Part shown: positions 30,843 to 61,294 of the stretch, one piece after another
How the letters are laid out: the number at the start of each line of letters is the position of its first letter
How positions within the stretch are numbered: the first letter of the stretch is position 1
NCBI GenBank assembly: GCA_965226795.1
Contig: CBDDDZ010000003.1
Coordinates: 352,001 to 416,000, forward strand
Direction of reading: 5' to 3'
Length of the DNA: 64,000 nt
From: Candidatus Latescibacterota bacterium
GTDB lineage: Bacteria; Latescibacterota; UBA2968; GCA-2709665
Notes under the pieces: generated by a model
The model's database searches: none
What the model saw: only the letters and a program-made list of their open reading frames with translations
What the model was told of the DNA's origin: nothing
Made by a program: the position numbers and the translations under genes

Positions 30843-30918
30843 GCGCCCATAGCTCAATAGGCAGAGCAGCTGACTCTTAATCAGAAGGTTCGGGGTTCGA
30901 TTCCCTGTGGGCGCACCA
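30843..30918 (+). tRNA. tRNA-Lys (CTT)
   Basis: 76-nt cloverleaf, anticodon loop CTCTTAA, GTTCGA T-loop, encoded CCA. Confidence 0.95.
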
Positions 30919-33935: not shown

Positions 33936-34547
33936 ATGAGCACGCCTACAATTCAACTCGACAGAGATCGCCTTCACAGCGCCGGCCTCGGTGTCTTCTT
34001 TCGTCCGAGCCAGATCGATGAGTTGGGGATCACGTACGACCAACTCCGCCGTTTGGTCTCAACCGGGGCCGTTGAGCGGGTCAACCGGGGCCTTTATAGG
34101 CTCGCCAGTGCGGAGCCGACTGAACACGACACACTCGCTGCTGTATGCGCGCGTGTACCCAATGCCGTCATATGCCTGCTTTCGGCGCTCAGCTTTCACG
34201 AAATCGGTACCCGGCTGCCACACGAGGTCTGGATTGCGATTCCCCATAAGGCGAGACCCCCTCGCCTTCCGCAATTCCGAACCCGACTCATCAGGTTCAG
34301 CGGCGCCGCCTGGACCTATGGTGTGTCAGACACCGCATTCGAAGGCGTTCCGGCGCGAATAACCTCGCCCGCTCGCACGATCGTCGATTGTTTCCGATTC
34401 GAACACTTAATCGGACGCGAAACTGCTATTGAGGCATTGCAAGACGGTTTCCGGGAAAAAAAGGTGACTACCGGCGCCCTGCTGCGAACACTTGAGGAGC
34501 TACCTTCGCGCCGGCTGAGCGCGGCCCTGGAAATAGGAATTATATGA
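33936..34547 (+). CDS. Type IV TA antitoxin, AbiEi family
   Basis: wHTH ERVNRGLYRL, SALSFHE, TSPARTIVDCFR. Confidence 0.88.
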   Translation: MSTPTIQLDRDRLHSAGLGVFFRPSQIDELGITYDQLRRLVSTGAVERVNRGLYRLASAEPTEHDTLAAVCARVPNAVICLLSALSFHEIGTRLPHEVWIAIPHKARPPRLPQFRTRLIRFSGAAWTYGVSDTAFEGVPARITSPARTIVDCFRFEHLIGRETAIEALQDGFREKKVTTGALLRTLEELPSRRLSAALEIGII

Positions 34548-35497
34548 TCACCGACGTCGCGGCGTCCATCAGATCTCGCCTGTACAATAAGGCAAAAAAA
34601 GTCGTATCGAGTTCCAGTTTTTCCTCGTGCGCTACGCCTGCGAAAGATTCCTATATCGCCTCGGCGCGTGCCCAGTACGTGATCGGTTTATACTCAAAGG
34701 CGCAACTCTGCTTGCCGTTTGGATGGATGAACCCTACCGCGCTACTCGCGATATCGATTTATTGGCGTCCTCCGGTGTCCCTGACGAAATGTACGTGCGA
34801 GAAACTATGAAAACCATCTGCAATGTCCCCTGCCCGGAGGATGGCCTGGTTTTCGATCTCGATAGCTTGCGGATTTCTATGATTCGTTCGGAGCAAGCGT
34901 TCCCGAGCCAACGCGCCAAGCTCAACTGTTATCTTGGAAGCGCGAGAATTCTCACCCAGGTAGACTTTGGTTTCGGCGACGTCGTCACGGCCGGTGCCGA
35001 GCAAGCGAAATTAAAGACCCTCATTGGCGGTGTCCCCGAACCCTCGTTGCTAGTTTATCCGCTGTCGACAAGCGTTGCCGAGAAGTTTGAAGCCATGGTG
35101 CGATTTGGGCAGCGCAATAGCCGTATGAAGGACTTCCATGACATTTGGGCCCTGTCGGATCGGTTTTTCTTTGATGGCGAGAAACTCCGCCGGGCCATCC
35201 GGGACTGTTTCAGCCGGCGTGGCACGGATCTGAACTCCGAGACTCCGGTTGCTCTCACTTCGTCGTTCTACTCGGACAATGACCGGAATAGGCTGTGGCG
35301 CAACTATCGGGTTGAGAACGGGCTCATGACACCGCCACCCGAATCTTTCGGAAATCGTTGGTGAGCGGTTGCAGAGATTTCTTGAGCCTATCCGTGAAAG
35401 CGTCCTGGCCGACACTTCGTTCGACCTTTGTTGGCCCGCTGGTGGACCGTGGCAACCCGTTTCGGACAAAGACAGCGAGAACGGAGACCGAGCTTGA
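34544..35497 (+). pseudogene. AbiEii nucleotidyltransferase toxin with two frameshifts
   Basis: VAASIRSRL start; shift at the A-run near 34600; FILKGA, RATRDID, NSRMKDFHD; second shift near 35350 restores ...WPAGGPW..., stop at 35497. Confidence 0.85.
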
Positions 35498-38363: not shown

Positions 38364-39761
38364 GTGAATTACCGGAAGGCGAACACCAACCATCCATTGA
38401 AGAATAGGCTAAATCCCTACCCGGCCTACAAGGACTCCGGCATCGAATGGCTGGGTGGGATACCAGCGCATTGGGAGGTGAAACGGCTGAAGTATGCTGT
38501 AAATTTGAACCCAGCGTCAACCGAGGCAAGAACCCACGACGATTCGCTTGAGGTCTCGTTTGTACCGATGGAGGCTGTTGGAGAATACGGCGGCCTTGAA
38601 TTGGTGACAACTAAGCCAATACGCGATGTATACGATGGTTACACGTACTTTCGTGAAGGGGATGTTTTGGTCGCGAAAATTACCCCGTGTTTCGAAAATG
38701 GCAAGGGCGCGATCGCTACTGGGCTCGTTAATAAAATTGCATTCGGGACCACGGAGCTGCACATCCTACGGACCAAAAGGACGACAAACCGGCAATTCCT
38801 GTTCTACTTGTCTATGGGAGATGCGTTCAGAAAACTTGGCCAAGCCGAAATGTATGGTGCGGGCGGCCAGAAACGCGTGCCCGAATCATTCATTGCCGAC
38901 TTATTGCACCCGCTCCCACCTCTCCCCGAACAGCGGGCCATCGCCGCTTTCCTTGATCGCGAGACGGCCAGGATCGACACCCTCGTCGAGAAGAAGGAAC
39001 GGCTAATCGAGTTGCTACAGGAAAAGCGCTCCGCGCTCATCAGCCACGCCGTAACGCGGGGTCTCGACCCCGACGTACCCACGAAGGACTCGGGAATCCA
39101 GTGGCTGGGAGAAATTCCGGTGCATTGGGAAGTAAGGAAGATCAAATCTCTGTTGGTTTGCCGAAAAGGTGCAATCAAGACTGGTCCATTCGGCAGCCAA
39201 TTGCACAGTTTCGAAATGACGCATAGCGACATAAAGGTGTTCAATCAGCGGACAGTGATTGATCGCGATATTTGGACCGGTGTGAACTACATTTCGATGG
39301 CTAAATTTAACGAACTACAAGCCTTCGAAGCGTTTCCAGGTGACTTGCTAATTACTACACGGGGCACGATCGGACGATGTCTGATTATTCCATTCGAAGC
39401 TCCTCGAGGTATTCTCCATCCCTGTCTAATGAGGATTCAAATAGACTCAAAGCATGCGTACGATCACTATATCGAGTTGGTCATAGAGAAAAGCGGATTG
39501 ACTTTGGCACAACTTCAATTGATGAGTCATGCTACGACAATTGACGTGATTTATTCGGATTCATTAAAAGAGACTCTACTATCAATTCCACCACTCCCCG
39601 AACAACGCGTTATCGCCGCCTTTCTTGACCGCGAGACGGCAAAGATTGACGCCCTCGCCACAAAGGTCCGAGAAGCCATCGACCGCCTGAAGGAACTCCG
39701 CTCGGCTCTCATTTCCGCGGCGGTGACGGGCAAGATCGATGTGCACGAAAACGTGCCATGA
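38364..39761 (+). CDS. hsdS: Type I R-M specificity subunit
   Basis: Two KDSGI.WLG.IP.HWEV and two PPLPEQR.IAAFLDRETA.ID repeats; AAVTGKIDV end. Confidence 0.95.
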   Translation: MNYRKANTNHPLKNRLNPYPAYKDSGIEWLGGIPAHWEVKRLKYAVNLNPASTEARTHDDSLEVSFVPMEAVGEYGGLELVTTKPIRDVYDGYTYFREGDVLVAKITPCFENGKGAIATGLVNKIAFGTTELHILRTKRTTNRQFLFYLSMGDAFRKLGQAEMYGAGGQKRVPESFIADLLHPLPPLPEQRAIAAFLDRETARIDTLVEKKERLIELLQEKRSALISHAVTRGLDPDVPTKDSGIQWLGEIPVHWEVRKIKSLLVCRKGAIKTGPFGSQLHSFEMTHSDIKVFNQRTVIDRDIWTGVNYISMAKFNELQAFEAFPGDLLITTRGTIGRCLIIPFEAPRGILHPCLMRIQIDSKHAYDHYIELVIEKSGLTLAQLQLMSHATTIDVIYSDSLKETLLSIPPLPEQRVIAAFLDRETAKIDALATKVREAIDRLKELRSALISAAVTGKIDVHENVP

Positions 39762-39910: not shown

Positions 39911-40761
39911 TCACTGTTTTGTCGTCAAATTCCATCCACCTCCGTCTTTGAGAATTAGCTTCATATTCCCGTCCTGATCCGTTCGGTATACCTTGTTTCC
40001 CTTGTTGGAACCGCCAGAATATTTCTCGTATAGTTCGATGGCCTTAGAGTTGGGGTGGCCGTGTGGGTTATCACCAACGGACACAATTGTCATCGCTGGA
40101 TCCATCGCTTCTTAACGTGATCAACGTAGTAGTGTTTTTCATCTTGGGGGTCATCGAAAAACGTGCTTGATCCATGATGGCCTGCTAAAAGTATGTCGCA
40201 CAAGAGTTCACTATTGTTGTAGTCTTCTTTAACTGCATATCTCCATGTCTCAGCATCGCTATCGCCCGTAAGCATTACGCTTCCTTCTCGCGAGACGTCG
40301 TTTGCACTACGTTGCTCAACCTTAAGTACTATGCCTTGCGCGTTGGCGTTTTTGGGTAGTCGTTCGTCTCGCGCACTCAGAAAGCGAAATCGTGTGCGAC
40401 CAAATCCCTGGCGCTTCAACTTCTCTTTGAGAACCGCGCCGACGGTTCTCCTTAGCTGCATGTATTGACGATATTCCGGGGCGTCAATCGAGGTTCCTGG
40501 ATGCCCGCTATCCCAGATCTTCTTAATGGGAAAGTATTCGTTTAACTTGGTTATACCGCGAATATGGTCGGCGTCTCGGTGAGTGCATACAAACGCGGCT
40601 AATATAGACTGCCAACCGATCTGTCTAGCGACGTACTGTAATACTCTATCTTCGTTCTCGTCGGTGATGTTGCAATCAACGACAAAATTGTCTCCATTTG
40701 CCGCTTCAATTAGCGACATGTTGCCCTGTCCAACGTCTATGAAATGTACAATCGTACTCAT
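39911..40761 (-). pseudogene. ComEC/Rec2-like MBL-fold hydrolase, frameshifted near 40107
   Basis: HFIDVGQG, THRDADH, LTGD, GHHGS; continues in the 39911-40105 frame with SVG.NPHGHP and YRTDQDG. Confidence 0.85.
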
Positions 40762-40850
40762 TGTTGGATACTCCACTTCAAGAACTCGAATCTAAAATGC
40801 GTCAGTGTAGATTGCTATTGCATGGAGATCACTTGCTACGAAACTTCCAT

Positions 40851-41603
40851 TTAGTTTTGGCAACTATCAGTGAGATCGTCCCTGTTAAGGCCTACAACCG
40901 CCGCGAAAAAACTTTCTGCGTAACGATCGGCCTTTTGGCGAGTATACTTCGGTAGGATGTATCCTAAGATTACAGTTCCCACCGCGATGAGTGTAGAAAT
41001 GAATGCCAAGAGTGAAGAACCGTTCTGACAGAGATATGTTACCCAGCATCCGACGAGGCTGGCCATAGCGAATGTAATCCACACGCATCTGAGCCCCGTC
41101 AAATTTCGCGCAAACCCGTAGTCGCTGTTGTGTAGACGTACCCGCTCCCCGATAGGTGATTTCCACAACCGACTGCGAAGCTCACTGAGAGCATCGTTAA
41201 TCACGGCCTCAATCTCGTGTTCATTGCCAGTCTCGACGGCTTGAGCGATGTCAAGGCCAACCAAGTCCTTTATGACCTGATACCAACGCTTTTTTTGTTG
41301 ATCGGAAGTTGAATTATCGTCTGGATGGAGCCATCGGTTCGTCGGAGCGTCGTGGGGCCAGGCAGGCCACATTTTTGACTGCAATCGATTGCCAAATGCC
41401 GAAGCAAGATGAGACGCGAATACAGCTAGAAGGGTACTGAACACAACGTAGGACACAAGAAGCTTCACAATTCCGAGAATCGGGATACCGAATGCAACTG
41501 CGACGGTCCACAACGGTAGAACAGAAAGTGCGGCAGGGATAAAACGGGCTTTTCGTTCGTATTGGTCACTCAGGTTTAGGTAGTTGAGCCATCCCTTATT
41601 CAT
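40851..41603 (-). CDS. Four-TM membrane protein, candidate defence effector
   Basis: Two N-terminal and two C-terminal hydrophobic helices; ARFIPA and N.DYGFARNL.G motifs; start overlaps the upstream stop. Confidence 0.75.
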   Translation of the reverse strand: MNKGWLNYLNLSDQYERKARFIPAALSVLPLWTVAVAFGIPILGIVKLLVSYVVFSTLLAVFASHLASAFGNRLQSKMWPAWPHDAPTNRWLHPDDNSTSDQQKKRWYQVIKDLVGLDIAQAVETGNEHEIEAVINDALSELRSRLWKSPIGERVRLHNSDYGFARNLTGLRCVWITFAMASLVGCWVTYLCQNGSSLLAFISTLIAVGTVILGYILPKYTRQKADRYAESFFAAVVGLNRDDLTDSCQN

Positions 41604-43881
41604 TCGCTATCGCCTCACGTTGGAAGGTGCTTTTCTCCGTTTTGCCAATGTAAAATCCAATATCTCGCCCTTCCCCCACTATTGTCATCGTTGCTGGGTA
41701 GCCGTCGGCTTGCATCAGTTCCTCAAGCCATGCAAGAACCTTCAGATCGTCCTTGCTTGGCTTCGTGCCTGCACCGCTCGGATGTGAATGCCATTCGCCC
41801 ACATACTCAATCATGCCGTGGACTACTTTGGTACGTTGTGCGACTTTCTCCGAAAGCCCCTCACATCCCCGGATGTATAGAGTAGGCCATTCTTCGCTAT
41901 CAGGTGGCGAAGGCAACGCATCGACGACATAGACGATACGTCTCTCCATATCGAAGGAACCCAGTAGAACGCCACCAGTTTCGTTTGGAAGTTTGGATTG
42001 ACGCACACGCGAGAGGGTCTCTATTACGACGTTGTCAGTGACAACTGTCCAATCGTTGGTAATTTTACGCACAACGGGGGCGGGGGATACTTTGACACGA
42101 TTTACGACACCGTCCTCGTTTGAACGCCAGATCGTAATTTGTGCGTCAGCACACCGTACGGCATCGCATACTGCTCTCCCGCCATTGCTCGCGTGAAGAC
42201 CTACCATGTATTGGGGGAGTATGCTTGTGATATCCCGACAGGATTGGGCATAGCGATACCTCCCGGGTGGCTTGTCAAGATGTCCTGACAAGCATCGGTT
42301 GTTTAGAACGGCTCTATAGTACTGCATTTCGAGGGCATCGACGGTAATGTTTCGTTGCTTATCTTCCGCGAGCAGAACGAGGTCTTTCCCGGACGGCGAC
42401 AGGAATAGCGAGATCCTCCGCGCTGTGCTATTGCAATCCTGCGCAATCATCCGTGCAACGCCAACCGATGCCGACATGTCTAGGATCAGGTCGGCCTTAG
42501 CCAGCGCATTGGATAGTTCTTGAGTTCGTCCACCAGGGGATAGCACATTTACTGGAAATGAGCTAAACAGGTCGGAACCGAAAATTATAGTATTCGCTAA
42601 GTGTGCAACGGCATCTGCCTTGTTCCAACCCACAAAACTACCGTCGAGGGCATGCCGGGCTAAATTGTGTGGCAATAGTATGTCGTGATCGATCAGTGTC
42701 CAAGTACCAAACCCTGTTCTCGCAATATTGATTGCAACTTGGGAACCAAGCGCACCCATACCGATCGCAACAACCCTCATATCGACCAATTCATCCTCGC
42801 CATTGAGCTTGGCTGCCATTGAGCGATCGAGGTGATGAACCAGATTCAGCACTGCTATGTCTACATCGTCGCCCGTTTTCGATGTGTCGGGCGGCAATAA
42901 ATAGCCAACCTCTTCTCCCAGTAAATCCCAAAGGCCGATCTTGGCGCCCAGTTGGCGAATTTGCAAGCCCTCAGCACTCTTGTCTTCTGCACTATCCAAA
43001 AGCAAAAACGCCCAACTATCAACTGCCTCGCTCTCTTCTTTTTCATGCCGCATTTTTGGAAACAAAATAACGACGAGAAGATTGGCGTCGAGAACAGATC
43101 TGTCCGTCTGATGCCAGGTCTGGAGACGTTTTCGTAATTCAGAAATAAGGTCGACCTTGGCAACCGCCGTCATGGCAGCAAGGTCAGCAAGTGTCGACGG
43201 AATTTGATGAATGACCCCATGCGTCTGAGGTTCGCAACGATGTACACTTGCAAGTAGCGGCGGCGGTCCTTCATGCGGTTCGCCTGTTAGTGCGATCAGA
43301 AAAAGGCCTTTACTATTATTGTCCGATGTCACCGAAACTACGACTAGCGGGGTTGGTAGGCGCTTCTCCAATTGTTTGGTAGAAGGAAGGACGATGTGCC
43401 CGTGGAAATCCATAAGAAGGGGTTCAAGAGGTTGGTCGTCCTGGTGGAGTTTTCCTTGACTGTTTAAGGATAGCCACCGACGGATGTCGTGGACGAACCT
43501 AGGGGAAGTCCAGCATCGCTTGATTTCCTCGTAAGGTTCTTCGTACACACACATATTTCGAGGATACTCTTGCCGGTGCAGATTGAGGTGCGGCACTCGC
43601 GGGAAATTAACACGTAGGGCATGGACAACAGGTACGTTGTCGTCCTCTTTAGTAAACGACGCGGATATGCGCTCTGTTGCCTTGATCGGGTAACGCTGCA
43701 CCTGTGCGATTTCAACGTCGACCTCAAACACCACAATTTCAATTTTATCCCGCTTACGACATTCGACGAACCGGGCAAAGTCAATGCGCTCAGCCGATAG
43801 ACTGAGCGCGAGATCCTTGGCCTTTGAAATCTCAAGGTCGTTTGGCCGGACGACGTCCCCCGAGACATCAAAATAGCTCAT
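41596..43881 (-). CDS. E2 - ThiF/E1 - JAB fusion (Cap2-Cap3-like)
   Basis: E2 FPRVPHLN...MCVYE; E1 GMGALGS and LIDHDILLPHNLARH; JAB ETGG, EWHSHP, PSKDD. Confidence 0.92.
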   Translation of the reverse strand: MSYFDVSGDVVRPNDLEISKAKDLALSLSAERIDFARFVECRKRDKIEIVVFEVDVEIAQVQRYPIKATERISASFTKEDDNVPVVHALRVNFPRVPHLNLHRQEYPRNMCVYEEPYEEIKRCWTSPRFVHDIRRWLSLNSQGKLHQDDQPLEPLLMDFHGHIVLPSTKQLEKRLPTPLVVVSVTSDNNSKGLFLIALTGEPHEGPPPLLASVHRCEPQTHGVIHQIPSTLADLAAMTAVAKVDLISELRKRLQTWHQTDRSVLDANLLVVILFPKMRHEKEESEAVDSWAFLLLDSAEDKSAEGLQIRQLGAKIGLWDLLGEEVGYLLPPDTSKTGDDVDIAVLNLVHHLDRSMAAKLNGEDELVDMRVVAIGMGALGSQVAINIARTGFGTWTLIDHDILLPHNLARHALDGSFVGWNKADAVAHLANTIIFGSDLFSSFPVNVLSPGGRTQELSNALAKADLILDMSASVGVARMIAQDCNSTARRISLFLSPSGKDLVLLAEDKQRNITVDALEMQYYRAVLNNRCLSGHLDKPPGRYRYAQSCRDITSILPQYMVGLHASNGGRAVCDAVRCADAQITIWRSNEDGVVNRVKVSPAPVVRKITNDWTVVTDNVVIETLSRVRQSKLPNETGGVLLGSFDMERRIVYVVDALPSPPDSEEWPTLYIRGCEGLSEKVAQRTKVVHGMIEYVGEWHSHPSGAGTKPSKDDLKVLAWLEELMQADGYPATMTIVGEGRDIGFYIGKTEKSTFQREAIANE

Positions 43882-45017
43882 CTTTGGCTACCTGCCCTCG
43901 GTGCGCGCCCTGACGTAGCGATAATTCCCGCGCTTACCACACTCTTTTTCAATGTTGCTTTGCTTTGTCCGATTTCAATCACCAACGGCTTAGGTGAGTT
44001 ACGTGACGGATGTTCCATCGTGACGACGAATTGCCCAACGAGGGCACGCGTGACGTCCTTGTAATAATTCGCAGCCTGTCGATGGGGTGGCTGCGAGTCC
44101 TCGTCTTCGTTACTACCTCCTACGGGAATGGGCTTGCTTGTTGATACCGCGATCGCCCCACGGTGTCCCTTTTTTTCGCATAGCCGCGCCACCTGAGTCA
44201 CGGGTGTGGTTTTGCTTGTGCCCTTTTCGGATCCTATGGAAAGATAGCTGCAGTGGTGGGGAATCTTGAGGATATCCCATTCAAGGTATTCTTCGTTTCC
44301 CTTGAACTCGGTAACGTCAACAATCTGTGACAGCACTTCATGGGTGGAATCAGCCAACATCAGCACTTTGGTATGTACTCCTGCGACATCGAAGGTTGCA
44401 TGCAGCACAAGCGAGTCCTCGTTCCGATCCTCGACCGGTTTATCGTTCTGTCGGATAGCAAATGGCGAGTGAACAAAAAACTCGATATGATCTTTACACA
44501 GAGAAAACTCAGGTGCGATCTCTCCCGCATCCGTAATCAAGTGAAGCCGGTCGTGGAGCTTCATGTCATTTTTTTCGCACCACTTCTCCAACCGTTCCGG
44601 CCGGGAGAAAACACGGATCCCTTTCGCCTGGCGGAATCGATAACGAGCCTCTTTCTGCAAAATGCGCGCCTCATCATCGTCAGGGCTCGTCTCCGTGATG
44701 AACGCAGAGGGCACCCACATCATGTTCATCTTGATGCGTTTTCCAACTTGGTACTTCATCGCATGTTCAAGGTAAAAGAAGTCGGAGGCCCCCTTGAAGT
44801 GATCTTTATCCAGGTGACTGAACGCTACGACGTCGAAGTAGTCACGATTGTTCTTCTTTAGGCCGTCTTTGAGGAGTTCCGGAAGGTCGCACCTAAGGTC
44901 ATTGTCGTCATTTTCATCTTTGGTTGCAGCGTAATCGATAAGGATTGTACGGTCACACGACAGTTCAATGCGACAGCAGTCGGCGTTTCCCAAAGGGAAA
45001 AAGGTCATTGTATGCAT
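43878..45017 (-). CDS. MBL-fold metallohydrolase
   Basis: FFPLGNAD, SHLDKDH, KIPHHCS; C-terminus APRAGSQR; ATGA overlap with the E2-E1-JAB gene. Confidence 0.88.
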   Translation of the reverse strand: MHTMTFFPLGNADCCRIELSCDRTILIDYAATKDENDDNDLRCDLPELLKDGLKKNNRDYFDVVAFSHLDKDHFKGASDFFYLEHAMKYQVGKRIKMNMMWVPSAFITETSPDDDEARILQKEARYRFRQAKGIRVFSRPERLEKWCEKNDMKLHDRLHLITDAGEIAPEFSLCKDHIEFFVHSPFAIRQNDKPVEDRNEDSLVLHATFDVAGVHTKVLMLADSTHEVLSQIVDVTEFKGNEEYLEWDILKIPHHCSYLSIGSEKGTSKTTPVTQVARLCEKKGHRGAIAVSTSKPIPVGGSNEDEDSQPPHRQAANYYKDVTRALVGQFVVTMEHPSRNSPKPLVIEIGQSKATLKKSVVSAGIIATSGRAPRAGSQR

Positions 45018-45215
45018 TTTAGCCTCCAACAGGGGTAGTGTTTGTAATTGTCATTTCACGTGAGTTTGGCGAACCGGGAAATGCCGGCCTAAACCGAAAT
45101 CCCAGATTGTCCGCCCAAACCTCCAGCGATGAATCACGCTGATTATCGCGTATGTTTCGGCGATCACTATCCATCTTGATGTCCGGATGACTAACGTCAA
45201 CTATATCGAACCTGG

Positions 45216-46466
45216 TTAAATTCCGTTACTTCCTTCATCGTCGAGGCTCAGGTCGGAAACCGCGTCATCCACTTCGCCGGCATCCACATTCAACATGCCG
45301 ACTAAGTCGATAAGTTCGGCACGGGAGATTCTTTTCCGCCTTAATGCTTCCAGGGCTAACCCGACAAACCGGTCGCGGAATTCGTTACGCAGAGCCTGGT
45401 GGTCCGGTTCCGGAAAGCCCAAGAGCTGCTCCAATTTACGCCCCTTATCCATTCTCTCTTGTTCTAACAGGCTCTCGAGTTCGCTAGCTGTGAGGAGTCG
45501 GGTGCTTCTCAGGCGATAGCAGGCGGCGATTCGGCTGACGCCGAAGTGGTGCGCCATACGCACTACATCGTAGAGCTGTATTTTCTGGCTTCCTGCGGTA
45601 GATCGAGCCCGCCCACGAATTGGCGATCCCTCATCGAACACTTCGGCTTCCATACGGCTGGGTCGCCCCTTTCCGGAAGCGTGGATAAACTGGCGCACTG
45701 CCTCAGCAGGCATCAGAAAGCTGGCGGCAAAGGAGTTGGCACGGACCTCACGTAACTGATCTCGGTCGTGCTCTCGACTGACGAAACCGCCGTGGTCTCG
45801 GTCCATAAGCACGTGACAATATTCGTGTGCGTACGAGAATCGCCTGCGCGAAAAATGGTGCTCCCGATTTGCTACAATGAGGACTCCGATCTCCTGCTTG
45901 ATGAGTGTAAAACCTGATACGTCGTCCGGCAACGTGACCAAGGCAGTACGAACGTCCTGCGATTCGAGAAGCTGGGCGATTTCGGAGATTGACGTAAGGC
46001 CGAGCCCAAGGCGGCCGCGTTCTTCCATTGCGACGCGTTCACCTTGTTGAATAGCCTCCCACGTGGTGCGTGGTTGTGGAAGCGGGTACGCCGCGACTGT
46101 AACTAGATCGCGGTCAATATCCAGCAATTGCTCAAGTCTGGTCATTTCCCGGCCCAAAGCTAAACACCGGAGGAGGGCCTCTCGCAAATCCTCCTTGCTC
46201 GACAGATCCGGGTGAAGTCGGTACAACGCGACGAGTGCATTCTCCTCTTCAGGTTCCTCCTCCGCCACAAAGCTCTGCAGATCCTTACCGAAGAGGATGG
46301 CAAGGCGAAACAGTTCAATACCGTTGACCGTACGGTTGCCCAGTTCGATCTGTGCCACAGTAGAGCGCGAGACTCCGAGGTGATTTGCAACCTCGTCTTG
46401 GGTCAGGCTGCTGGATTCTCTGGCGCGCCTAAGCCTCTGGCCCAACTCTTTATGGTCAATTGCCAT
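45216..46466 (-). CDS. XRE-HTH plus ImmA/IrrE (M78) metallopeptidase fusion
   Basis: LTQDEVA..LGVSRSTVAQIELGNR HTH; RRFSYAHEYCH; EVRANSFAASFLMP. Confidence 0.92.
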   Translation of the reverse strand: MAIDHKELGQRLRRARESSSLTQDEVANHLGVSRSTVAQIELGNRTVNGIELFRLAILFGKDLQSFVAEEEPEEENALVALYRLHPDLSSKEDLREALLRCLALGREMTRLEQLLDIDRDLVTVAAYPLPQPRTTWEAIQQGERVAMEERGRLGLGLTSISEIAQLLESQDVRTALVTLPDDVSGFTLIKQEIGVLIVANREHHFSRRRFSYAHEYCHVLMDRDHGGFVSREHDRDQLREVRANSFAASFLMPAEAVRQFIHASGKGRPSRMEAEVFDEGSPIRGRARSTAGSQKIQLYDVVRMAHHFGVSRIAACYRLRSTRLLTASELESLLEQERMDKGRKLEQLLGFPEPDHQALRNEFRDRFVGLALEALRRKRISRAELIDLVGMLNVDAGEVDDAVSDLSLDDEGSNGI

Positions 46467-47150: not shown

Positions 47151-47431
47151 ATGACACTGATCTACTCAACTTCTGAAGCAAAGGCGCGGTTTTCGGAGGT
47201 CATCCGTGCAAGTGCGCGAAGGCAGGACCGTCACGGTTTCTTTATCGAGGAGAGCCCGTGGCTGAGATCCGCGGAATCCAGCGTCACCAGCAGACGACGA
47301 TCGAAGAGCGACTGGACGATCTCCAACGACGCGGGGTCCTGGTGCGATCGGGAGCGCCAAGGCAGGCGTTTCAGCCAGTGGCGCGTCGGCCGGGTGCCCT
47401 GGCGCGGTTCCTGGCTGAGCGTGGCGAATGA
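47151..47431 (+). pseudogene. Phd/YefM antitoxin with two frameshifts
   Basis: STSEAKARFSEVIR / QVREGRTVTVS / YRGEPVAEI...GALARFLAERGE*. Confidence 0.8.
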
Positions 47432-47583
47432 GCGCGGCGAACGTCGATACGTCGGTATTGGCCGCCATCGCCTTCGACGAACAGAACCCCGGCGAACTCC
47501 TGCTCTTCACGCTTGACGACCGATAGTGCGCTGTGGCCGCCGTGCTCGGCTTTGTCACTCCGGAGGGACTGTATTCGCTATGA
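47428..47583 (+). pseudogene. VapC/PIN toxin remnant (internal deletion plus TAG)
   Basis: MSAANVDTSVLAAIAFDE joined directly to FTLDDR*..AAVLGF; ATGA coupling to the antitoxin. Confidence 0.7.
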
Positions 47584-47755
47584 GCCTCGCGGTTTCAGAA
47601 ACCTCTTTCCAGTACACCATCTACCTGGAACTGGCTTATATTGTGGAAGCCGGTTCTTTTCTTTTTCGCCCATTTGCATTATATTATTAGCGACTTAAAG
47701 CAATGACGCTAATAAGATTGACTCCTATTTTCATATGTGCAAACAAGGCACGGTC

Positions 47756-48955
47756 ATGACACCAGGAAACAACGGGCGTAGCCCGCCCCCCGGTCGCACA
47801 ATCCGATGTCCGGAAGGCTATAGCGCATACGTACCGGCGCCACTTCCGCCCGATATTGCCTGGGACAAGGAACTCGCCCTCGCGCTTTCCCATGCCGACC
47901 GTGCAGTGGGCCGGCTCGCGGGCGAAGGCCGGCTGATGCCGATTCCGTATCTCTTTATCAGGGCATTCCTGTACAAGGAAGCGGTGCTTTCCAGCCGCAT
48001 CGAGGGCACGCAGGTTTCCCTGGGCGAATTGTTCGCCGCAAATGCCGGAGCGAGAGTCGAGCGAAGCGCAGAGGAATTGGAAGAGGTGGCAAACTACATC
48101 GTGGCGTTAGACTACGGCATCGATCGCTTGGCAACGCTTCCGCTTTCATTGCGCCTGGTTCGGGAACTGCACGAGCGGCTGATGCGCGGCGTGCGCGGCG
48201 ACACTGCGACGCCGGGCGAGTTTCGCCGCATCCAGAACTGGATCGGCCCGCCCGGATGTGGTGGGAGCAACGCGACTTACGTTCCACCGCCCCCGGATGA
48301 ACTGATGGATTGCCTCGGCGCGTGGGAGCGATTTCTCCACGACGAAACACTTCCTCCTCTCGTCCACGCCGCTCTCATCCATTCGCAGTTCGAGGCCATC
48401 CATCCGTTTCTCGACGGGAATGGACGTATCGGTCGGCTGCTCATTCCGCTGCTGTTCGCTGCCCGTGGCGTTTTACCAACACCGCTTCTGTATCTGAGCG
48501 CATACTTTGAATCGACGCGGCAGGAGTACTATGAACACCTTCTAAGGGTGACCCACGACGGAGAGTGGGAGGCGTGGCTGGTGTACTTTCTGCGCGGTGT
48601 TGCCGAGCAGGCCGAGGACGCCATTCGTCGGATCCGCCGCATCGACGAATTGTTCCATCGTTGGTCGGAGCAAATCGCAGGCGTCAGATCGGGGAATCTG
48701 GAGACGGTTTTGGAACTGTTCGTCGAATTCCCGTTCTGGAACGTGCGCATGCTCGCATCAAAGCTGGGGGTCGCCTACACGACGGCTCGGCGCGCCGTCG
48801 ATCGGTTGGAATCAGCAGGTATTGTCACGCAGGTTGGCGACGCAAAGCGAAACCGTGTATATTGTGCGGACGCAGTACTCGAAGTCCTCGACGCGCCGCA
48901 TATCGAAAATCAAGACGAACCGAAAGCCACAATGACTTCGCGAGTCGCATTATGA
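47756..48955 (+). CDS. Fic family protein (Fic_N, Fic, C-terminal HTH)
   Basis: EAVLSSRIEGT and HPFLDGNGRIGR. Confidence 0.93.
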   Translation: MTPGNNGRSPPPGRTIRCPEGYSAYVPAPLPPDIAWDKELALALSHADRAVGRLAGEGRLMPIPYLFIRAFLYKEAVLSSRIEGTQVSLGELFAANAGARVERSAEELEEVANYIVALDYGIDRLATLPLSLRLVRELHERLMRGVRGDTATPGEFRRIQNWIGPPGCGGSNATYVPPPPDELMDCLGAWERFLHDETLPPLVHAALIHSQFEAIHPFLDGNGRIGRLLIPLLFAARGVLPTPLLYLSAYFESTRQEYYEHLLRVTHDGEWEAWLVYFLRGVAEQAEDAIRRIRRIDELFHRWSEQIAGVRSGNLETVLELFVEFPFWNVRMLASKLGVAYTTARRAVDRLESAGIVTQVGDAKRNRVYCADAVLEVLDAPHIENQDEPKATMTSRVAL

Positions 48956-51900
48956 GTCCCGTTATTTCCGAAAAAGCCTTCGAAGACGCCATCGAGGCGG
49001 CTTTGCTTGGCCATGGCAAGGATGAGTCGGGGGGTCTTCCGACCGGGGTGCGTGAAGGCGGGTTGCCGATAGGCGGCCAGGCGATGGAACCCGGTGGCTA
49101 TTTCAAACGAAGGCACGAGGACTATGACCACGCACTCTGCCTTCTGCCCAAAGATGTTCTGGATTTCATTATTGCGACTCAGCCAAAGGAGTGGCGGAAG
49201 TTGTCCCAGCACTATGGCGCCCAGGTCAAAGGACGATTTCTCAAGCGCCTATCGTCGGAAATCGAACGCCGGGGCGTACTCCACGTGCTGCGGAACGGGA
49301 TCAAGGATATGGGCTGCACGTTCCGATTGGCCTATTTCCGGCCGGCCAGCGGGCTCAACGAGGAGACGCGCCGACTGTATATGGCCAACTTCTTCGCGGT
49401 TGTCCGCCAGGTACGCTACAGTATGAAAAACGAGAAAAGCCTCGATTTGGTTCTGTTCCTGAACGGTATCCCCATTTTCACCGCCGAACTCAAGAACCTG
49501 CTCAGCGGACAGACGGTCGAGGACGCGATCCGCCAGTATAAGACAGACCGGGACCCGCGCGAGCCGCTGTTCGGCTTTGGCCGATGTCTGGCGCATTTCG
49601 CGGTTGATCCGGATCTGGTCTACGTCACCACACGTCTCGCCGGTCCCAAAACGCGCTTCCTTCCCTTCAACCAGGGTAACAACCGCGGTGCGGGAAACCC
49701 GCCGGTGCCGCCTACGCAATCCGGCTATGCCACTTCGTATCTCTGGGAGGAGACATGGTCGCGGGACAGTGTGCTTGATTTGGTGCGCCAGTTTGTCCAC
49801 GAAGTCGAGGAGGAAGACGAGAACGGCCGCAAGACCGGCAGGAAATCGCTGGTCTTCCCGCGCTACCAGCAACTCGATTGCGTGCGAAAGCTCATATCGG
49901 ATGCCCGTAAGACCGGGGCGGGACAGCGCTATCTCATCCAGCACTCCGCCGGAAGCGGTAAGACGTTCACCATCGCCTGGCTCGCCCACCAGTTATCCAC
50001 GCTGCACGACATAGAAGACCGCCGCGTTTTCGATTCGATCGTAGTTATCACGGACCGGCGCGTGCTCGACCGCGCCCTCCAGGGCGCCATGCGCCAGTTC
50101 GAGCAGACCCTGGGCGTTGTGGAAAATATCGACACGACCTCGCGCCAACTCAAAGAGGCGCTCGAATCCGGCAAGACAATTATCGTGACCACGCTGCAGA
50201 AATTCCCGGTGATCGCCGCGGAAATCGGCGAATTGCCGGGCAAGCGATTCGCACTGATCGTCGACGAAGCGCACTCGTCCCAATCCGGCGAGAGCACCAA
50301 GAGCCTAAAGGCGGTGTTGGCGACGGGGTCTTTAGAAGAGGCGGAGGGCGAGGAAGCCGGGGCCGAGACGCCAGAAGAGGAACTCGAAAACGCGATCCTG
50401 GCGGAGGTGGAGAAGCGCGGGCGCCTGCCCAATCTCTCGACTTTCGCCTTTACCGCGACCCCCAAGCCCAAGACGCTGGAGCTTTTTGGCACCCGCCGCA
50501 CGGACGAATCGTTCGAACCGTTTCACCTCTACAGCATGCGGCAGGCCATCGAGGAGGGGTTCATCCTCGACGTCCTGGAGAACTATACGACCTACAAAGC
50601 CTATTGGCGGCTATTGAAGAAGGTGGAGGACGACCCGCGCTACGACAGGCGCAAGGCTACCGTCCTGCTCAAATCGTACGTTGAACTTCACCCGCACGCG
50701 ATTGACGAGAAGGTACGCATCATGGTCTGCCACTTTGTCGAGCAGGTGCACACCCAGATCGACGGGAAGGCAAAGGCAATGATCGTCACCCGCTCGCGAC
50801 TGCACGCCGTTCGCTTCAAGCTGGCGGTGGACAAATACCTCGCCGAACAGGGGCACGCGTTCAAAGCGCTGGTTGCGTTCTCGGGCACCGTCGAGGATGG
50901 CGGCAAGTCCTATACCGAGCCCGGCATGAACGGCGTTTCCGAGGTGCAGACCGCAAACACATTCAAAGGATCGGAATATCGATTCCTGATATGTGCGAAC
51001 AAATTCCAGACCGGTTTCGACCAGCCGCTGTTGCACGCGATGTACGTCGACAAAAAACTCGGCGGCGTGAACGCGGTGCAGACACTCTCACGGATTAACC
51101 GTACAGAACCAGGAAAAGACGGCACGATGGTACTCGATTTCGCCAACGATGCCGACGACATCAAGGAGGCCTTCGAACCTTATTACGAAACAACACTGCT
51201 GTCGGAGGCGACCGATCCCAACCTGCTCTACGAGATCCAGATGCGTCTGTCCGACTTCCCGGTATACGATCAGTCCGATGTGGATGAATTCGCAAGGATT
51301 TTTTTCGACAAGGCCGCCACACAGGACCAGCTTCATGCCGCGCTCAATCCCGTGGTCCACCGATTTCAGACGTTAGAAGAAAGTGAACAGCAGGAATTCC
51401 GGGGTCAACTTGTCGACTACGTGCGGCTTTACGCGTTTCTCGCACAGATCCTTCCGTTCGCCGACGTCGATCTGGAGAAGCTGTACGTCTTCTCGCGACA
51501 CTTACGCCGCCTGTTGCCAATGGACCGGGCTGAGTTGCCGCTCGAAGTTCAGCAGAATATCGACATGGAGTCGTATAGGATTCAGGAAACCCGCAAAGGC
51601 AAAATAAACCTGGAGCGAGGGACGACGAAGCTCGAGCCCGTCGGTACAAAGGACACATACTCGCTACAGCCGGAAGAAATGGAGACCCTTTCGCGGATCA
51701 TCGCCGAATTGAACGAGCGCTTCGGGGTCGAACTCGGGCAGGAGCACCGCGCCACCCTCGGCCAGATGATGGACAGACTTTCTGAAGACGCTGCACTCGG
51801 CGCCGCGGCGCGGGTGAATACGCGCGAAAATGTGCGATTGACTTTCGACCACAAGGTTGAAGAGACCATCCAGGGTATTGTGGATTCCAATTTCGATCTA

Positions 51901-52482
51901 TACAAACGGATCACCGACGACCTCGCTTTTGGAAACGTCATCAAAGATGTCCTCTTCGACCAGTTCCTGCGCACGAACCGTAGCGCGGAGGACCTCATCA
52001 AACAGGGCGAGTCGAAAACCCTGGAATTTAAATCGACGCTGCGCTGGAACCTGAAAGAGGACCGCAAGAACGATAAGCGCGTCACCCATGCGGCGCTCAA
52101 GACAATCGCCGCATTCCTGAACACGGAAGGCGGCGACCTTCTGCTAGGCGTCGCCGACGACGGCGCCGTCGTTGGAATAGAACGCGACCGGCTAGATACC
52201 GAAGACAAGTTCATGCTGCATCTCGCGCAGATCGTGCGCAACGGTCTCGGCGACCGCGCAGGCACGTGCATCGATCCCGGAGTTCAGATCGTCGACGGCA
52301 AGGCGGTATGCGTGGTGAGTTGCCAACGGAGCCCGGAACCGGTGTTCCTCTCGTGGAAGGGACTTGAGAAGGAAAACGGAGGTGACTTTTTCGTGCGCAG
52401 CGGTCCGGGAGCCGTTAAGCTCTCGTCAGACGACACCAGGGAATACATCCGTTCCCGGTTTGCCGGTTCAAATCCCAAGTGA
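48952..52482 (+). CDS. hsdR: Type I R-M restriction subunit with C-terminal Schlafen/AlbA_2-like domain
   Basis: D.VLF.NGIP..AELK nuclease, QHSAGSGKT, DEAH, FTATP; C-terminal GESKTLEFK...IAAFLNTEGG.LLLGV.DDG. Confidence 0.93.
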   Translation: MSPVISEKAFEDAIEAALLGHGKDESGGLPTGVREGGLPIGGQAMEPGGYFKRRHEDYDHALCLLPKDVLDFIIATQPKEWRKLSQHYGAQVKGRFLKRLSSEIERRGVLHVLRNGIKDMGCTFRLAYFRPASGLNEETRRLYMANFFAVVRQVRYSMKNEKSLDLVLFLNGIPIFTAELKNLLSGQTVEDAIRQYKTDRDPREPLFGFGRCLAHFAVDPDLVYVTTRLAGPKTRFLPFNQGNNRGAGNPPVPPTQSGYATSYLWEETWSRDSVLDLVRQFVHEVEEEDENGRKTGRKSLVFPRYQQLDCVRKLISDARKTGAGQRYLIQHSAGSGKTFTIAWLAHQLSTLHDIEDRRVFDSIVVITDRRVLDRALQGAMRQFEQTLGVVENIDTTSRQLKEALESGKTIIVTTLQKFPVIAAEIGELPGKRFALIVDEAHSSQSGESTKSLKAVLATGSLEEAEGEEAGAETPEEELENAILAEVEKRGRLPNLSTFAFTATPKPKTLELFGTRRTDESFEPFHLYSMRQAIEEGFILDVLENYTTYKAYWRLLKKVEDDPRYDRRKATVLLKSYVELHPHAIDEKVRIMVCHFVEQVHTQIDGKAKAMIVTRSRLHAVRFKLAVDKYLAEQGHAFKALVAFSGTVEDGGKSYTEPGMNGVSEVQTANTFKGSEYRFLICANKFQTGFDQPLLHAMYVDKKLGGVNAVQTLSRINRTEPGKDGTMVLDFANDADDIKEAFEPYYETTLLSEATDPNLLYEIQMRLSDFPVYDQSDVDEFARIFFDKAATQDQLHAALNPVVHRFQTLEESEQQEFRGQLVDYVRLYAFLAQILPFADVDLEKLYVFSRHLRRLLPMDRAELPLEVQQNIDMESYRIQETRKGKINLERGTTKLEPVGTKDTYSLQPEEMETLSRIIAELNERFGVELGQEHRATLGQMMDRLSEDAALGAAARVNTRENVRLTFDHKVEETIQGIVDSNFDLYKRITDDLAFGNVIKDVLFDQFLRTNRSAEDLIKQGESKTLEFKSTLRWNLKEDRKNDKRVTHAALKTIAAFLNTEGGDLLLGVADDGAVVGIERDRLDTEDKFMLHLAQIVRNGLGDRAGTCIDPGVQIVDGKAVCVVSCQRSPEPVFLSWKGLEKENGGDFFVRSGPGAVKLSSDDTREYIRSRFAGSNPK

Positions 52483-52757
52483 TCCTCGAAGCTTGCCAGG
52501 AATGGGTCCGGTAGGGGGCCATCGTCGCCAGACTCTGTCAGACAATGGTCACCCAATTCCGTAAATTGTCAAATTTCGACTCCGTTATTATCGAATTAAA
52601 CTGTAAACGCTAATAAGTGTCTTCCTTATTTTCGCAATCGCAAATAACGCGTGGTCGTGACGTCAGGTATCGATGGGAGAAACCGACCCTGCGGTCGACA
52701 GGCCAGCACCTGCACGGCATCGTGGTCCAGGCGCCCGCGCCTGTCTAAGCCCCACCC

Positions 52758-52786
52758 GTAGGGGCAGGTTTCAAACCTGCCCCTAC
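52758..52786. repeat. GTAG-type REP palindrome
   Basis: GTAGGGGCAGGTTT-C-AAACCTGCCCCTAC with perfect 14-bp arms. Confidence 0.8.
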
Positions 52787-52902
52787 CCTCAATACATCCG
52801 CGGATGCAGGTGAAATCGACGGGGCGTTGATGCGGGGTTGACATCTCCGATGAGGATGTGTATTATCTATACACACTTTTCCGCGAACCAGGAGGTGCCC
52901 AA

Positions 52903-53178
52903 ATGGCCAGAGTTCAGCTTGTATTATCCGACGAGGACCGCGACCGCTTCGTTCATCAGGCGCGAAGAGAAGGTAAGACCTTGAGCGCTTGGCTAAGAAC
53001 CGCAGCCCGCCAACGGCTCGAGGAACAGCAGCGGTCCCAGCCCTTCAAGTCGTCGGCTGACGTGGAGGCGTTCTTTCGCGCGTGCGACGCGCTGGAAGGT
53101 CCTGCTAGGGAGCCTGAATGGAATGAACACCTGGCGGTCATCCAGGAATCCCGCAGAAGGGGTATATCCAACACGTGA
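52903..53178 (+). CDS. Putative VapB-type antitoxin
   Basis: RHH-like MARVQLVLSD...LSAWLR; GGAGG RBS; GTGA overlap with the PIN toxin. Confidence 0.75.
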   Translation: MARVQLVLSDEDRDRFVHQARREGKTLSAWLRTAARQRLEEQQRSQPFKSSADVEAFFRACDALEGPAREPEWNEHLAVIQESRRRGISNT

Positions 53179-53567
53179 TATTTGTCGACACCAATGTCTT
53201 TATGTACGCCGTGGGCAGGCCGCATCCGCTCCGGGATACTGCCCGGGGCTTTTTCACTGAGTGCACCCTTAACCGCACGCCTCTGTGCACGTCGGCGGAA
53301 GTGCTGCAGGAGTTGGCACACGCTTACCTCCCGGTGGCGAGGCTGCAAACGCTCGATGCGGCCCTGTCGTTGATCGCCAGATTCCGCGTGGATGTATGGC
53401 CGCTGGAAGAGGAGGATGTCACGCTTGCGCGTCAGCTCTGCGAACAACATCCCACCCTGGCAGCCAGGGACCTCTGCCACCTGGCCAGCTGCCGGCGGCG
53501 CGGCGTGAGCGAGGTTCGGACCTTCGATCAGGCTCTCGGCGCCGTTATCGGCGGAACGGCGGGGTGA
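53175..53567 (+). CDS. VapC PIN-domain toxin
   Basis: MIFVDTNV, EVLQE, RD..H.A, TFD. Confidence 0.9.
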   Translation: MIFVDTNVFMYAVGRPHPLRDTARGFFTECTLNRTPLCTSAEVLQELAHAYLPVARLQTLDAALSLIARFRVDVWPLEEEDVTLARQLCEQHPTLAARDLCHLASCRRRGVSEVRTFDQALGAVIGGTAG

Positions 53568-60187: not shown

Positions 60188-61294
60188 TCATCCGTAGGAC
60201 CACTCGCTTTGAAACCCCTGTTGTTCTGCAATTGACATGAGAGGCTTCAAGGTCTTGTGATACGCAGATTTCAATTTCTCGTAGTCCAGCGTTTGATCTG
60301 CGCAAATAAACAGGTCCGTCGTATACGGCTCTATTTCCTTTTCCCATTTCTTACTGCTCAAGCTGTCCCGTGCGATGGATAACGCGGCACTCTGGGTTTC
60401 AGCTAAGCGATCAATGTAAATCTCAGATGGGATTTGGTCGCTTTTGCAACTGTTCGCTTGGGAATCAGCCGGTATCAGGTTCCACAACTGATTGTGCGCT
60501 ACGAATCTCCATGGCAAAAAATGATCCAATTCATAACCGCGATCCAGCTTCTTACCCGTGTAAATGCATCGGATATCCGTTTTATCAATAGCGATATTCC
60601 AGAAGCTTCTCTGTGCGTTAAGAGACTCCCTCTTATCTGGCGGGAGCAACTTTCGTGTTACAGCAGGAATACCGGGATTGCGCCGCTGCATATAATCTGC
60701 CCAATGCCACAGCGCCCATCCCTCGATAATCCCTTGGTTTTGTTTCAAATACGCGATCCAATCCGGATGCAAAAGGATGCATTCTTCGGAATTGTCGAAA
60801 CGGAAAAGAGGGCGTCGTTCACGGAAATGTTTGGCGGCGAGCTTGGTAACTTTCTGGTTCACCTTTTGATCTGGCATACCTCTGGTTTCTGTGGCGAAAA
60901 ACGGGCGCAAAATCCGGTAAGGGACAAAACGCGTTAATTTGTAATCTGACAACTTACTATTACAGGCGAGATGTTTCCGCAATTTATCGCGCCCGGTTTT
61001 GGACAGGACATTTCGATAATCTTCGTTGAACTGGATCGGTTCTAAAGCCGAAGCAATTTGGTCCCGAGTGCCAAACGACAATTTGAAAAAGACGAGAGGA
61101 TACCATGCAGTAAGCAGCATCTCAATCTCTATTTTTCTCAATGGAATTCCGTCATCAATCTCAAATTGCCTGTCCCTTATCAAATTCATTAACGAGATAA
61201 AAAAGAGATATTTGTACGAATTGGTCGTATGCCTGAACAAGCTGCTCAGTGTAGCGATATCCAGTTGGTGCGAATGTGGTAATGGCTGGGTCAT
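60188..61294 (-). CDS. HNH endonuclease domain protein
   Basis: C.YTG, ELDHFLPW, WNLIP...N..KSD; N-terminal TNSYKY. Confidence 0.85.
   Translation of the reverse strand: MTQPLPHSHQLDIATLSSLFRHTTNSYKYLFFISLMNLIRDRQFEIDDGIPLRKIEIEMLLTAWYPLVFFKLSFGTRDQIASALEPIQFNEDYRNVLSKTGRDKLRKHLACNSKLSDYKLTRFVPYRILRPFFATETRGMPDQKVNQKVTKLAAKHFRERRPLFRFDNSEECILLHPDWIAYLKQNQGIIEGWALWHWADYMQRRNPGIPAVTRKLLPPDKRESLNAQRSFWNIAIDKTDIRCIYTGKKLDRGYELDHFLPWRFVAHNQLWNLIPADSQANSCKSDQIPSEIYIDRLAETQSAALSIARDSLSSKKWEKEIEPYTTDLFICADQTLDYEKLKSAYHKTLKPLMSIAEQQGFQSEWSYG

Follow-up and report, generated by a model that had tools for sequence, protein, structure and literature searches.

A type I restriction subunit HsdR with a C-terminal Schlafen domain in Candidatus Latescibacterota and other lineages: a candidate latent tRNase back-up

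In antiviral proteins of humans and bacteria the Schlafen fold acts as a tRNA-cutting nuclease. Here we analyse a gene in which a Schlafen (AlbA_2) domain forms the C-terminus of HsdR, the translocase and nuclease subunit of a type I restriction-modification (R-M) system; the gene lies in a stretch of 64,000 nucleotides (hereafter the window) from a Candidatus Latescibacterota genome (GCA_965226795.1, contig CBDDDZ010000003.1, positions 352,001 to 416,000). The bacterial Schlafens characterised in the papers cited here, RorSlfn5, Cash and RzAgo, are all described there as tRNases. RorSlfn5 is a hexamer and a trigger-dependent tRNase, set off by direct binding of a phage chaperone. Cash is a filament-forming, trigger-dependent tRNase that is activated by oligomerisation (Weickert et al., 2026, PMC13462974). 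In the RzAgo dimer two single lobes rebuild the mammalian horseshoe, and tRNA is reported to be cleaved only with target DNA plus ATP (SLFN-pAgo preprint, bioRxiv 10.64898/2026.05.29.728809). The human SLFN11 is activated by single-stranded DNA via its helicase domain.

The C-terminal domain of HsdR docks on the methyltransferase, and the R2M2S complex is reported to contain two HsdR subunits. Precedents for cell death that guards R-M are PrrC, Ronin and EcoR22I (the last two in bioRxiv 10.1101/2023.04.06.535777); further background on Schlafens, PrrC and type I complexes is given in PMC12839542, PMC3874165, PMC12707154, PMC5862951 and PMC12602166. Schlafen domains themselves have been linked to R-M proteins in three recent accounts. 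Perez Taboada et al. (2026, PMC13056530) list 55 Schlafen compositions, including pSlfn7 (DUF262-Slfn), pSlfn19 (TRD-Slfn), pSlfn22 (MTase-Slfn) and pSlfn15 (P-loop-Slfn); Weickert et al. (2026) report Schlafen-methyltransferase fusions and the R-M-linked clusters 3, 4 and 7; and the SLFN-pAgo preprint contains a fusion of HsdS with Schlatpase, which carries a GHKL ATPase. A full HsdR fusion is not among the 55 compositions of PMC13056530, whose main text does not use the word HsdR; HsdR is likewise not mentioned in six supplements of PMC13462974 or in the text of the SLFN-pAgo preprint, though the fusion may be among the 103,533 Schlafen proteins counted there. No title or abstract opening found in our literature search, which left most subscription journals outside, describes an HsdR-Schlafen fusion. 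The full fusion is apparently uncharacterised so far, although the idea is less novel than the initial annotation of this DNA held, with Schlafen fusions to R-M methyltransferases and to HsdS already in print.

The anatomy of the gene in the window is as follows.

48952-52482, plus strand: hsdR-Schlafen fusion gene, 1176 amino acids (our protein P0001); its start codon and the stop codon of the preceding Fic gene overlap (ATGA)
49381-49647, plus strand: HsdR PD-(D/E)xK endonuclease (HSDR_N), amino acids 144-232, with D165, E179 and K181 intact
49867-51231, plus strand: superfamily 2 (SF2) translocase, about amino acids 306-760, with Walker A HSAGSGKT, DEAH and motif VI QTLSRINR intact
51970-52482, plus strand: C-terminal single-lobe Schlafen/AlbA_2 domain, amino acids 1007-1176, with PF04326 at amino acids 1020-1156 (52009-52419)
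52009-52158, plus strand: predicted Schlafen active site, E1020 (52009), E1025 (52024), K1027 (52030) and D1069 (52156), aligned to E205/E210/D248 of rat SLFN13

The window hsdR encodes a complete type I HsdR subunit with a Schlafen C-terminus in one reading frame. The initial annotation had proposed that the HsdR frame runs on into such a domain within one polypeptide, and the PF04326 profile confirms this with 65.4 bits against a gathering score of 25.3. At the other end of the protein the HSDR_N profile scores 59 bits, and all nuclease and motor motifs of the HsdR part are preserved. The TIGR00348 score of 197.8 bits lies under the curated cut-off of 284.55; since the plain-type HsdR paralog scores similarly (193.7 bits), the low value is a trait of the subfamily. 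The tail has the Schlafen C-lobe fold, an intact Ex4ExK form of the Ex4(E/D)xK motif, the third carboxylate and the Schlafen box (AAFLN). It is therefore a Schlafen domain by profile, fold and motif, and its nuclease activity is predicted. The N-terminal DUF262 that is typical of pSlfn7 (EcoSlfn7) found no match in the fusion protein in the profile scan.

The fusion is widespread. When the query included the tail, PF04326 was present in all of the best 120 of 2069 matches, a set biased by that query; a search with residues 140-900 only, which selects on HsdR alone, still found the tail on 102 of the 120 closest HsdR cores. Of the other 18, 16 stop at the normal HsdR end and two are broken earlier. 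Scanning metagenomes with a query that lacked the tail yielded 80 loci, of which 56 are full fusions, five are fusions cut by contig ends, one is a tail-less gene and 18 could not be assessed, so that 61 of 62 assessable loci are fused. The notion that the fusion could be unique to this assembly, which the initial annotation had put forward as a ground for rejecting its reading, therefore fails. An hsdS gene accompanies 54 of the 61 fused metagenome loci, and the remaining seven have 2.3 kb of upstream DNA or less. By their labels, the genome records with the fusion (a set of 27 loci that includes one without the tail, one with another fusion and several partial ones) belong to Latescibacterota, Gemmatimonadota, Acidobacteriota groups, Binatia, Myxococcota, Chloroflexota and Deltaproteobacteria. 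Across many phyla the fusion stays at 65-95% identity, and the closest named record, labelled Candidatus Latescibacterota, is 95% identical over the last 277 amino acids. Among the records seen, the system of P0075, labelled Pelomicrobium sp. G1, is the single named one that does not come from a metagenome-assembled genome. Within the lineage of the window the distribution is patchy: the full domain occurs in 4 of 14 genomes of the source genus, and any match at 1e-20 in 15 of 168 genomes of the phylum. The fusion is a conserved clade in many, almost wholly uncultured, lineages, which may explain why surveys of reference genomes contain a single fragment of it.

Both halves of the protein are conserved. 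Of the 102 fusions that were chosen on the HsdR core, 98 keep the whole set of four Schlafen catalytic residues; Ex4ExK is intact in 60 of the 61 fused metagenome loci, and the corresponding E14/E19/K21/D63 of the domain are kept in at least 90% of the wider Schlafen subfamily. In the same 102 fusions D165, K181, K337, D438 and E439 of HsdR are intact in every case and E179 in 101, which argues that DNA cutting is kept in the fused clade. Among 96 full-length fusions the tail has a mean pairwise identity of 0.83; the nuclease and motor stand at 0.87-0.90 and the C-terminal region of HsdR at 0.80-0.85 (HsdR regions being compared from amino acid 140 on). The ratio of nonsynonymous to synonymous substitutions (dN/dS, Nei-Gojobori) of the tail is 0.08-0.22 in nine of ten hand-picked, non-independent pairs, close to that of the other regions, and one pair is saturated. 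In a FastTree phylogeny rooted on the S24 paralog described below, tail-less proteins are nested within the fused clade at several places. Seven of these alleles (P0326, P0327, P0329 and P0331-P0334) end just after the first Schlafen helix, within two residues of E1020, and are interleaved with tailed alleles of the same clade. Therefore the tail is selected for, dispensable for the HsdR frame and repeatedly lost; as read from the sequences, this is the pattern of a dispensable, costly add-on.

The reverse loss is found as well. In locus L159 (L159:1415-2632, minus strand) and in proteins P0175 and P0157 the HsdR core is gone and an intact tail still stands in frame, which is consistent with a lone lobe being harmless. 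After such deletions the tail follows remnants of Fic, of the HsdR N-terminus or of AbiEii, or an unrelated 650-amino-acid region (L159, P0175, P0157, P0159 and P0191).

The C-terminal position that Schlafen occupies is also used by another domain. A second HsdR of the source genome, 44% identical (G000:C5:90059-93610, minus strand, = L038:10060-13596), bears Peptidase_S24 in the same place and shows an apparent self-cleavage site and dyad. HsdR-S24 without Schlafen is present in five genomes of the genus, the source genome and four others (L120-L123); in those four hsdS lies upstream, while in the 20 kb examined at the copy of the source genome there was no hsdM or hsdS match, and a transposase-like gene is nearby. 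S24 proteins act by cleaving themselves. Judged from its sequence, HsdR-S24 could serve as a switch, built into the enzyme, that relieves restriction once DNA has been damaged. The deep search also gave HsdR-Schlafen-S24 triple fusions, P0254 at full length and P0183 and P0227 as fragments, whose S24 parts retain an Ala-Gly or Ala-Ala-Gly site, Ser and Lys, which we take to be of the LexA type. In the core tree P0254 groups as the sister of the main fused clade (support 0.999, long branch), and in the domain tree the triples form the earliest branches, with weak support (0.52).

The Schlafen domain itself has further partners. A 52-member Atlas cluster pairs it with T1RH-like_C (score 0.84), which is probably a separate fusion to another HsdR family. 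The nearest sisters of the domain outside HsdR are proteins of about 430 amino acids with an ATP12-like N-terminus, a family that makes up most of its next-nearest relatives; other sister fusions involve Cache, REC, cNMP, TPR, RNase HII and DUF262, and the unrelated 816-amino-acid protein P0191 carries the tail domain at about 60% identity. One ATP12-like + Schlafen gene (L024:9188-10492, 434 amino acids, 49% identical in the domain) directly follows genes of a BREX-related system that encode DUF499, DUF3780 and DUF1156.

The explanation that we favour, tentatively and at somewhat less than even odds, is that the tail may be a latent tRNA-cutting back-up which brings growth to a halt once the restriction complex has been blocked or has stalled. 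Like RorSlfn5, Cash and RzAgo, the tail would be a tRNase that depends on metal. A single lobe would be inactive alone, and the R2M2S complex with its two HsdR subunits would be the scaffold that pairs the tails into a two-lobed horseshoe. Pairing would occur in a persistent non-productive state, with the DNA mimic Ocr or ArdA bound or the motors stalled or collided, and not at each normal restriction event, because suicide at each event would be wasteful for an enzyme with a working DNase. It is the retention of the HsdR nuclease that favours a fail-safe role. The initial annotation had read the locus as an R-M system with a built-in RNase fail-safe. That general idea agrees with the intact Schlafen site on an intact HsdR, the complete hsdM-hsdS-hsdR set and the purifying selection; the simple picture of a PrrC-like nuclease that is caged and then released fits poorly, since single-lobe bacterial Schlafens need dimers or oligomers and the core-deleted genes keep an intact tail. 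Such genes suit a caged active toxin less well, though they are possibly silent.

Several observations weigh against a tRNase back-up. The charge of the tail is balanced (26 K+R against 26 D+E), without a net positive charge, and the experimentally tested proteins are distant, EcoSlfn7 being 32% identical across 69 amino acids (E 1e-4). Degenerate Schlafen active sites occur in four of the 102 fusions and in P0313. Only two of seven cloned pSlfn systems gave protection. The core-deleted remnants may be unexpressed, and the ATP12-like, Cache, REC, cNMP and TPR partners of the domain do not necessarily point to a role in immunity. Human SLFN5-N and mouse SLFN1 are reported to keep the catalytic glutamates without cutting tRNA; thus intact motifs are no guarantee of cleavage.

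The blocked or stalled complex is preferred as the trigger over four other explanations. An unlikely one, although the best placed of the four, is that the tRNase is fired by normal target recognition, with binding of an unmethylated site and ATP-driven translocation pairing the tails so that restriction and translation shut-off come together. The need of RzAgo for target DNA plus ATP, the helicase-mediated response of SLFN11 and the invariant HsdR motor motifs would all suit such coupling, but almost every member retains an intact DNase, so that arrest with every restriction event would be costly, and self-sites arising after DNA damage would set off the tRNase. The case of SLFN5 suggests a somewhat less probable explanation: rather than being a physiological RNase, the tail would bind nucleic acids or regulate the motor to which it is appended, or would cut DNA ends or R-loops. 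The four catalytic positions, kept in nearly all fusions and through the wider subfamily, speak against this, as does the tRNase activity described for every characterised bacterial Schlafen in the cited papers.

The tail could also be an independent phage-triggered toxin that merely rides on hsdR, a phage protein oligomerising it or the adjacent HsdR C-terminal region whatever the R-M state. The domain clade is promiscuous (P0191 and the many sensor fusions), and RorSlfn5 is set off by just such direct binding; however, the fusion is stable over many phyla, hsdS is present wherever there is enough upstream DNA, and Schlafen has been fused separately to HsdM, to HsdS and probably to a second HsdR family, a sign that the domain is functionally coupled to type I complexes. 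We give this explanation slightly less credit than the preceding one. Least probable in our view is that the tail is the leftover of a module gated by the SOS response: in an ancestral HsdR-Schlafen-S24 protein, RecA-stimulated self-cleavage would have unlocked the RNase or destroyed HsdR after DNA damage, and the form without S24 would now answer DNA damage or nothing. The conserved S24 residues of the three triples, the position of P0254 and of the triples in the two trees, and the HsdR-S24 proteins of the genus are in line with this history. Against it, only three triples were seen, the domain tree is weakly supported, P0254 sits on a long branch, and purifying selection is strong in the clade of the window although S24 is absent there.

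From the tRNase back-up that we prefer one may go a step further, to a wider and more doubtful proposal. The C-terminus of this HsdR subfamily may be a swappable effector slot, holding nothing, Schlafen, S24 or both, and R2M2S would serve as an immune sensor whose two motors pair the lobes into a tRNase only when jammed by a DNA mimic or stalled. Restriction and abortive defence would then reside in one complex, a bacterial parallel to the helicase-gated human SLFN11.

The surroundings of the gene within the window are the following.

30843-30918, plus strand: tRNA-Lys(CTT) gene, which marks the left end of the island
31269-33422, plus strand: hsdM, 717 amino acids, with DPCCGSGG and NPPY motifs (MTase_I, 879.5 bits)
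33936-34547, plus strand: AbiEi, between hsdM and hsdS
34544-35364, plus strand: AbiEii, between hsdM and hsdS; its start is in another frame, so it is apparently frameshifted
38364-39761, plus strand: hsdS, 465 amino acids, with two Methylase_S stretches in the profile scan
47735-48955, plus strand: SoFic-type Fic gene directly upstream of hsdR (SoFic, 392.7 bits)

The cognate hsdM and hsdS thus lie 9-18 kb upstream of hsdR, beside the tRNA-Lys gene, which is likely the integration site of the island. The cargo before hsdR is of defence type: AbiEi/AbiEii, a PDDEXK_4 nuclease, two metallo-beta-lactamase (MBL)-like proteins, an E2-ThiF-JAB protein, a protein with helix-turn-helix (HTH) and M78 parts, and SoFic. 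No separate ABC-ATPase with HEPN anticodon nuclease (PrrC/RloC) was found among the open reading frames scanned between hsdM and hsdR. The order hsdM, AbiE, hsdS, variable cargo, Fic, hsdR is repeated in three genomes of the genus, AbiE and hsdS being present in all three and hsdM inside the examined stretch in two. Among the window and the loci L001-L027 and L040-L119, 43 show hsdM, hsdS and the tail; AbiEi occurs in 33 of these and AbiEii in 26, whereas neither occurs in 19 loci of other HsdR (13 with an hsdM match). Related loci are not independent.

Part of the cargo forms an opposite-strand block inside the hsd locus (40090-46466, minus strand), with the HTH/M78 peptidase, an MBL-like protein, a 761-amino-acid E2-ThiF-JAB fusion, a 250-amino-acid membrane protein and a second MBL gene, apparently split near 40090. 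No cyclase was noticed among the genes of this block, three of which recur in locus L001. A decayed-looking toxin-antitoxin pair, read from the sequence, precedes Fic (47151-47516). After hsdR there is a short REP-like (repetitive extragenic palindromic) element at 52756-52787, with loose ends in all four runs and few genome copies (7 strand matches at up to 4 mismatches), followed by a small antitoxin-like gene and a PIN toxin (52858-53567) with a near-consensus promoter at 52838-52866. An HNH_4 nuclease gene of low GC content (60188-61294, minus strand, 368 amino acids) lies outside the hsd island.

If the tail is a back-up of this kind, a type I enzyme would itself signal that restriction has failed, with no need for a separate guard protein, and tRNA cleavage could serve as a readout of the conformation of R2M2S. 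The system suits a clean test of the gating of single-lobe Schlafens by a nucleic-acid motor, a question raised for R-M-linked Schlafens in PMC13462974, and nature has provided the controls in the S24-tailed paralogs and in near-identical alleles that differ in whether they carry the tail.

Compared with known proteins, the HsdR part shares the order of nuclease and SF2 motor and their motifs with EcoR124I HsdR (PDB 2w00), but it belongs to a distant subfamily (best stretch amino acids 328-454, E 2e-12), and EcoR124I has no C-terminal nuclease add-on. The pSlfn proteins of PMC13056530 have the same PF04326 domain and Ex4(E/D)xK motif at the C-terminus of R-M-type proteins, and one pSlfn15 row there (WP_425517117.1, 516 amino acids, T1R_D3-like + SLFN) resembles a C-terminal piece of the HsdR-Schlafen architecture. 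PMC13462974 and the SLFN-pAgo preprint likewise place Schlafen fused to or beside R-M genes; in contrast to our fusion, the fusions named there are to methyltransferases or HsdS, or carry a GHKL ATPase, and none is to the translocase/nuclease subunit, and the R-M-linked ones are left uncharacterised in those accounts. Anantharaman et al. (2013, PMC3710099) describe HEPN domains fused to restriction endonucleases and helicases, which also build an RNase or toxin into R-M, with a different effector fold. Ronin and EcoR22I share the principle of a toxin that guards R-M but have other effector folds, Ronin being without HsdR and EcoR22I being a type III system without a known effector domain. EcoprrI/PrrC is similar in that a tRNase effector is tied to a type I R-M complex and is proposed to act upon restriction inhibition; PrrC, however, is a separate ABC-ATPase/HEPN protein, whereas here the Schlafen lobe lies within the HsdR chain and has no ATPase sensor of its own. 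On our analysis, the likeliest role of the fusion is that of a PrrC-like back-up, but it is not a member of the PrrC family.
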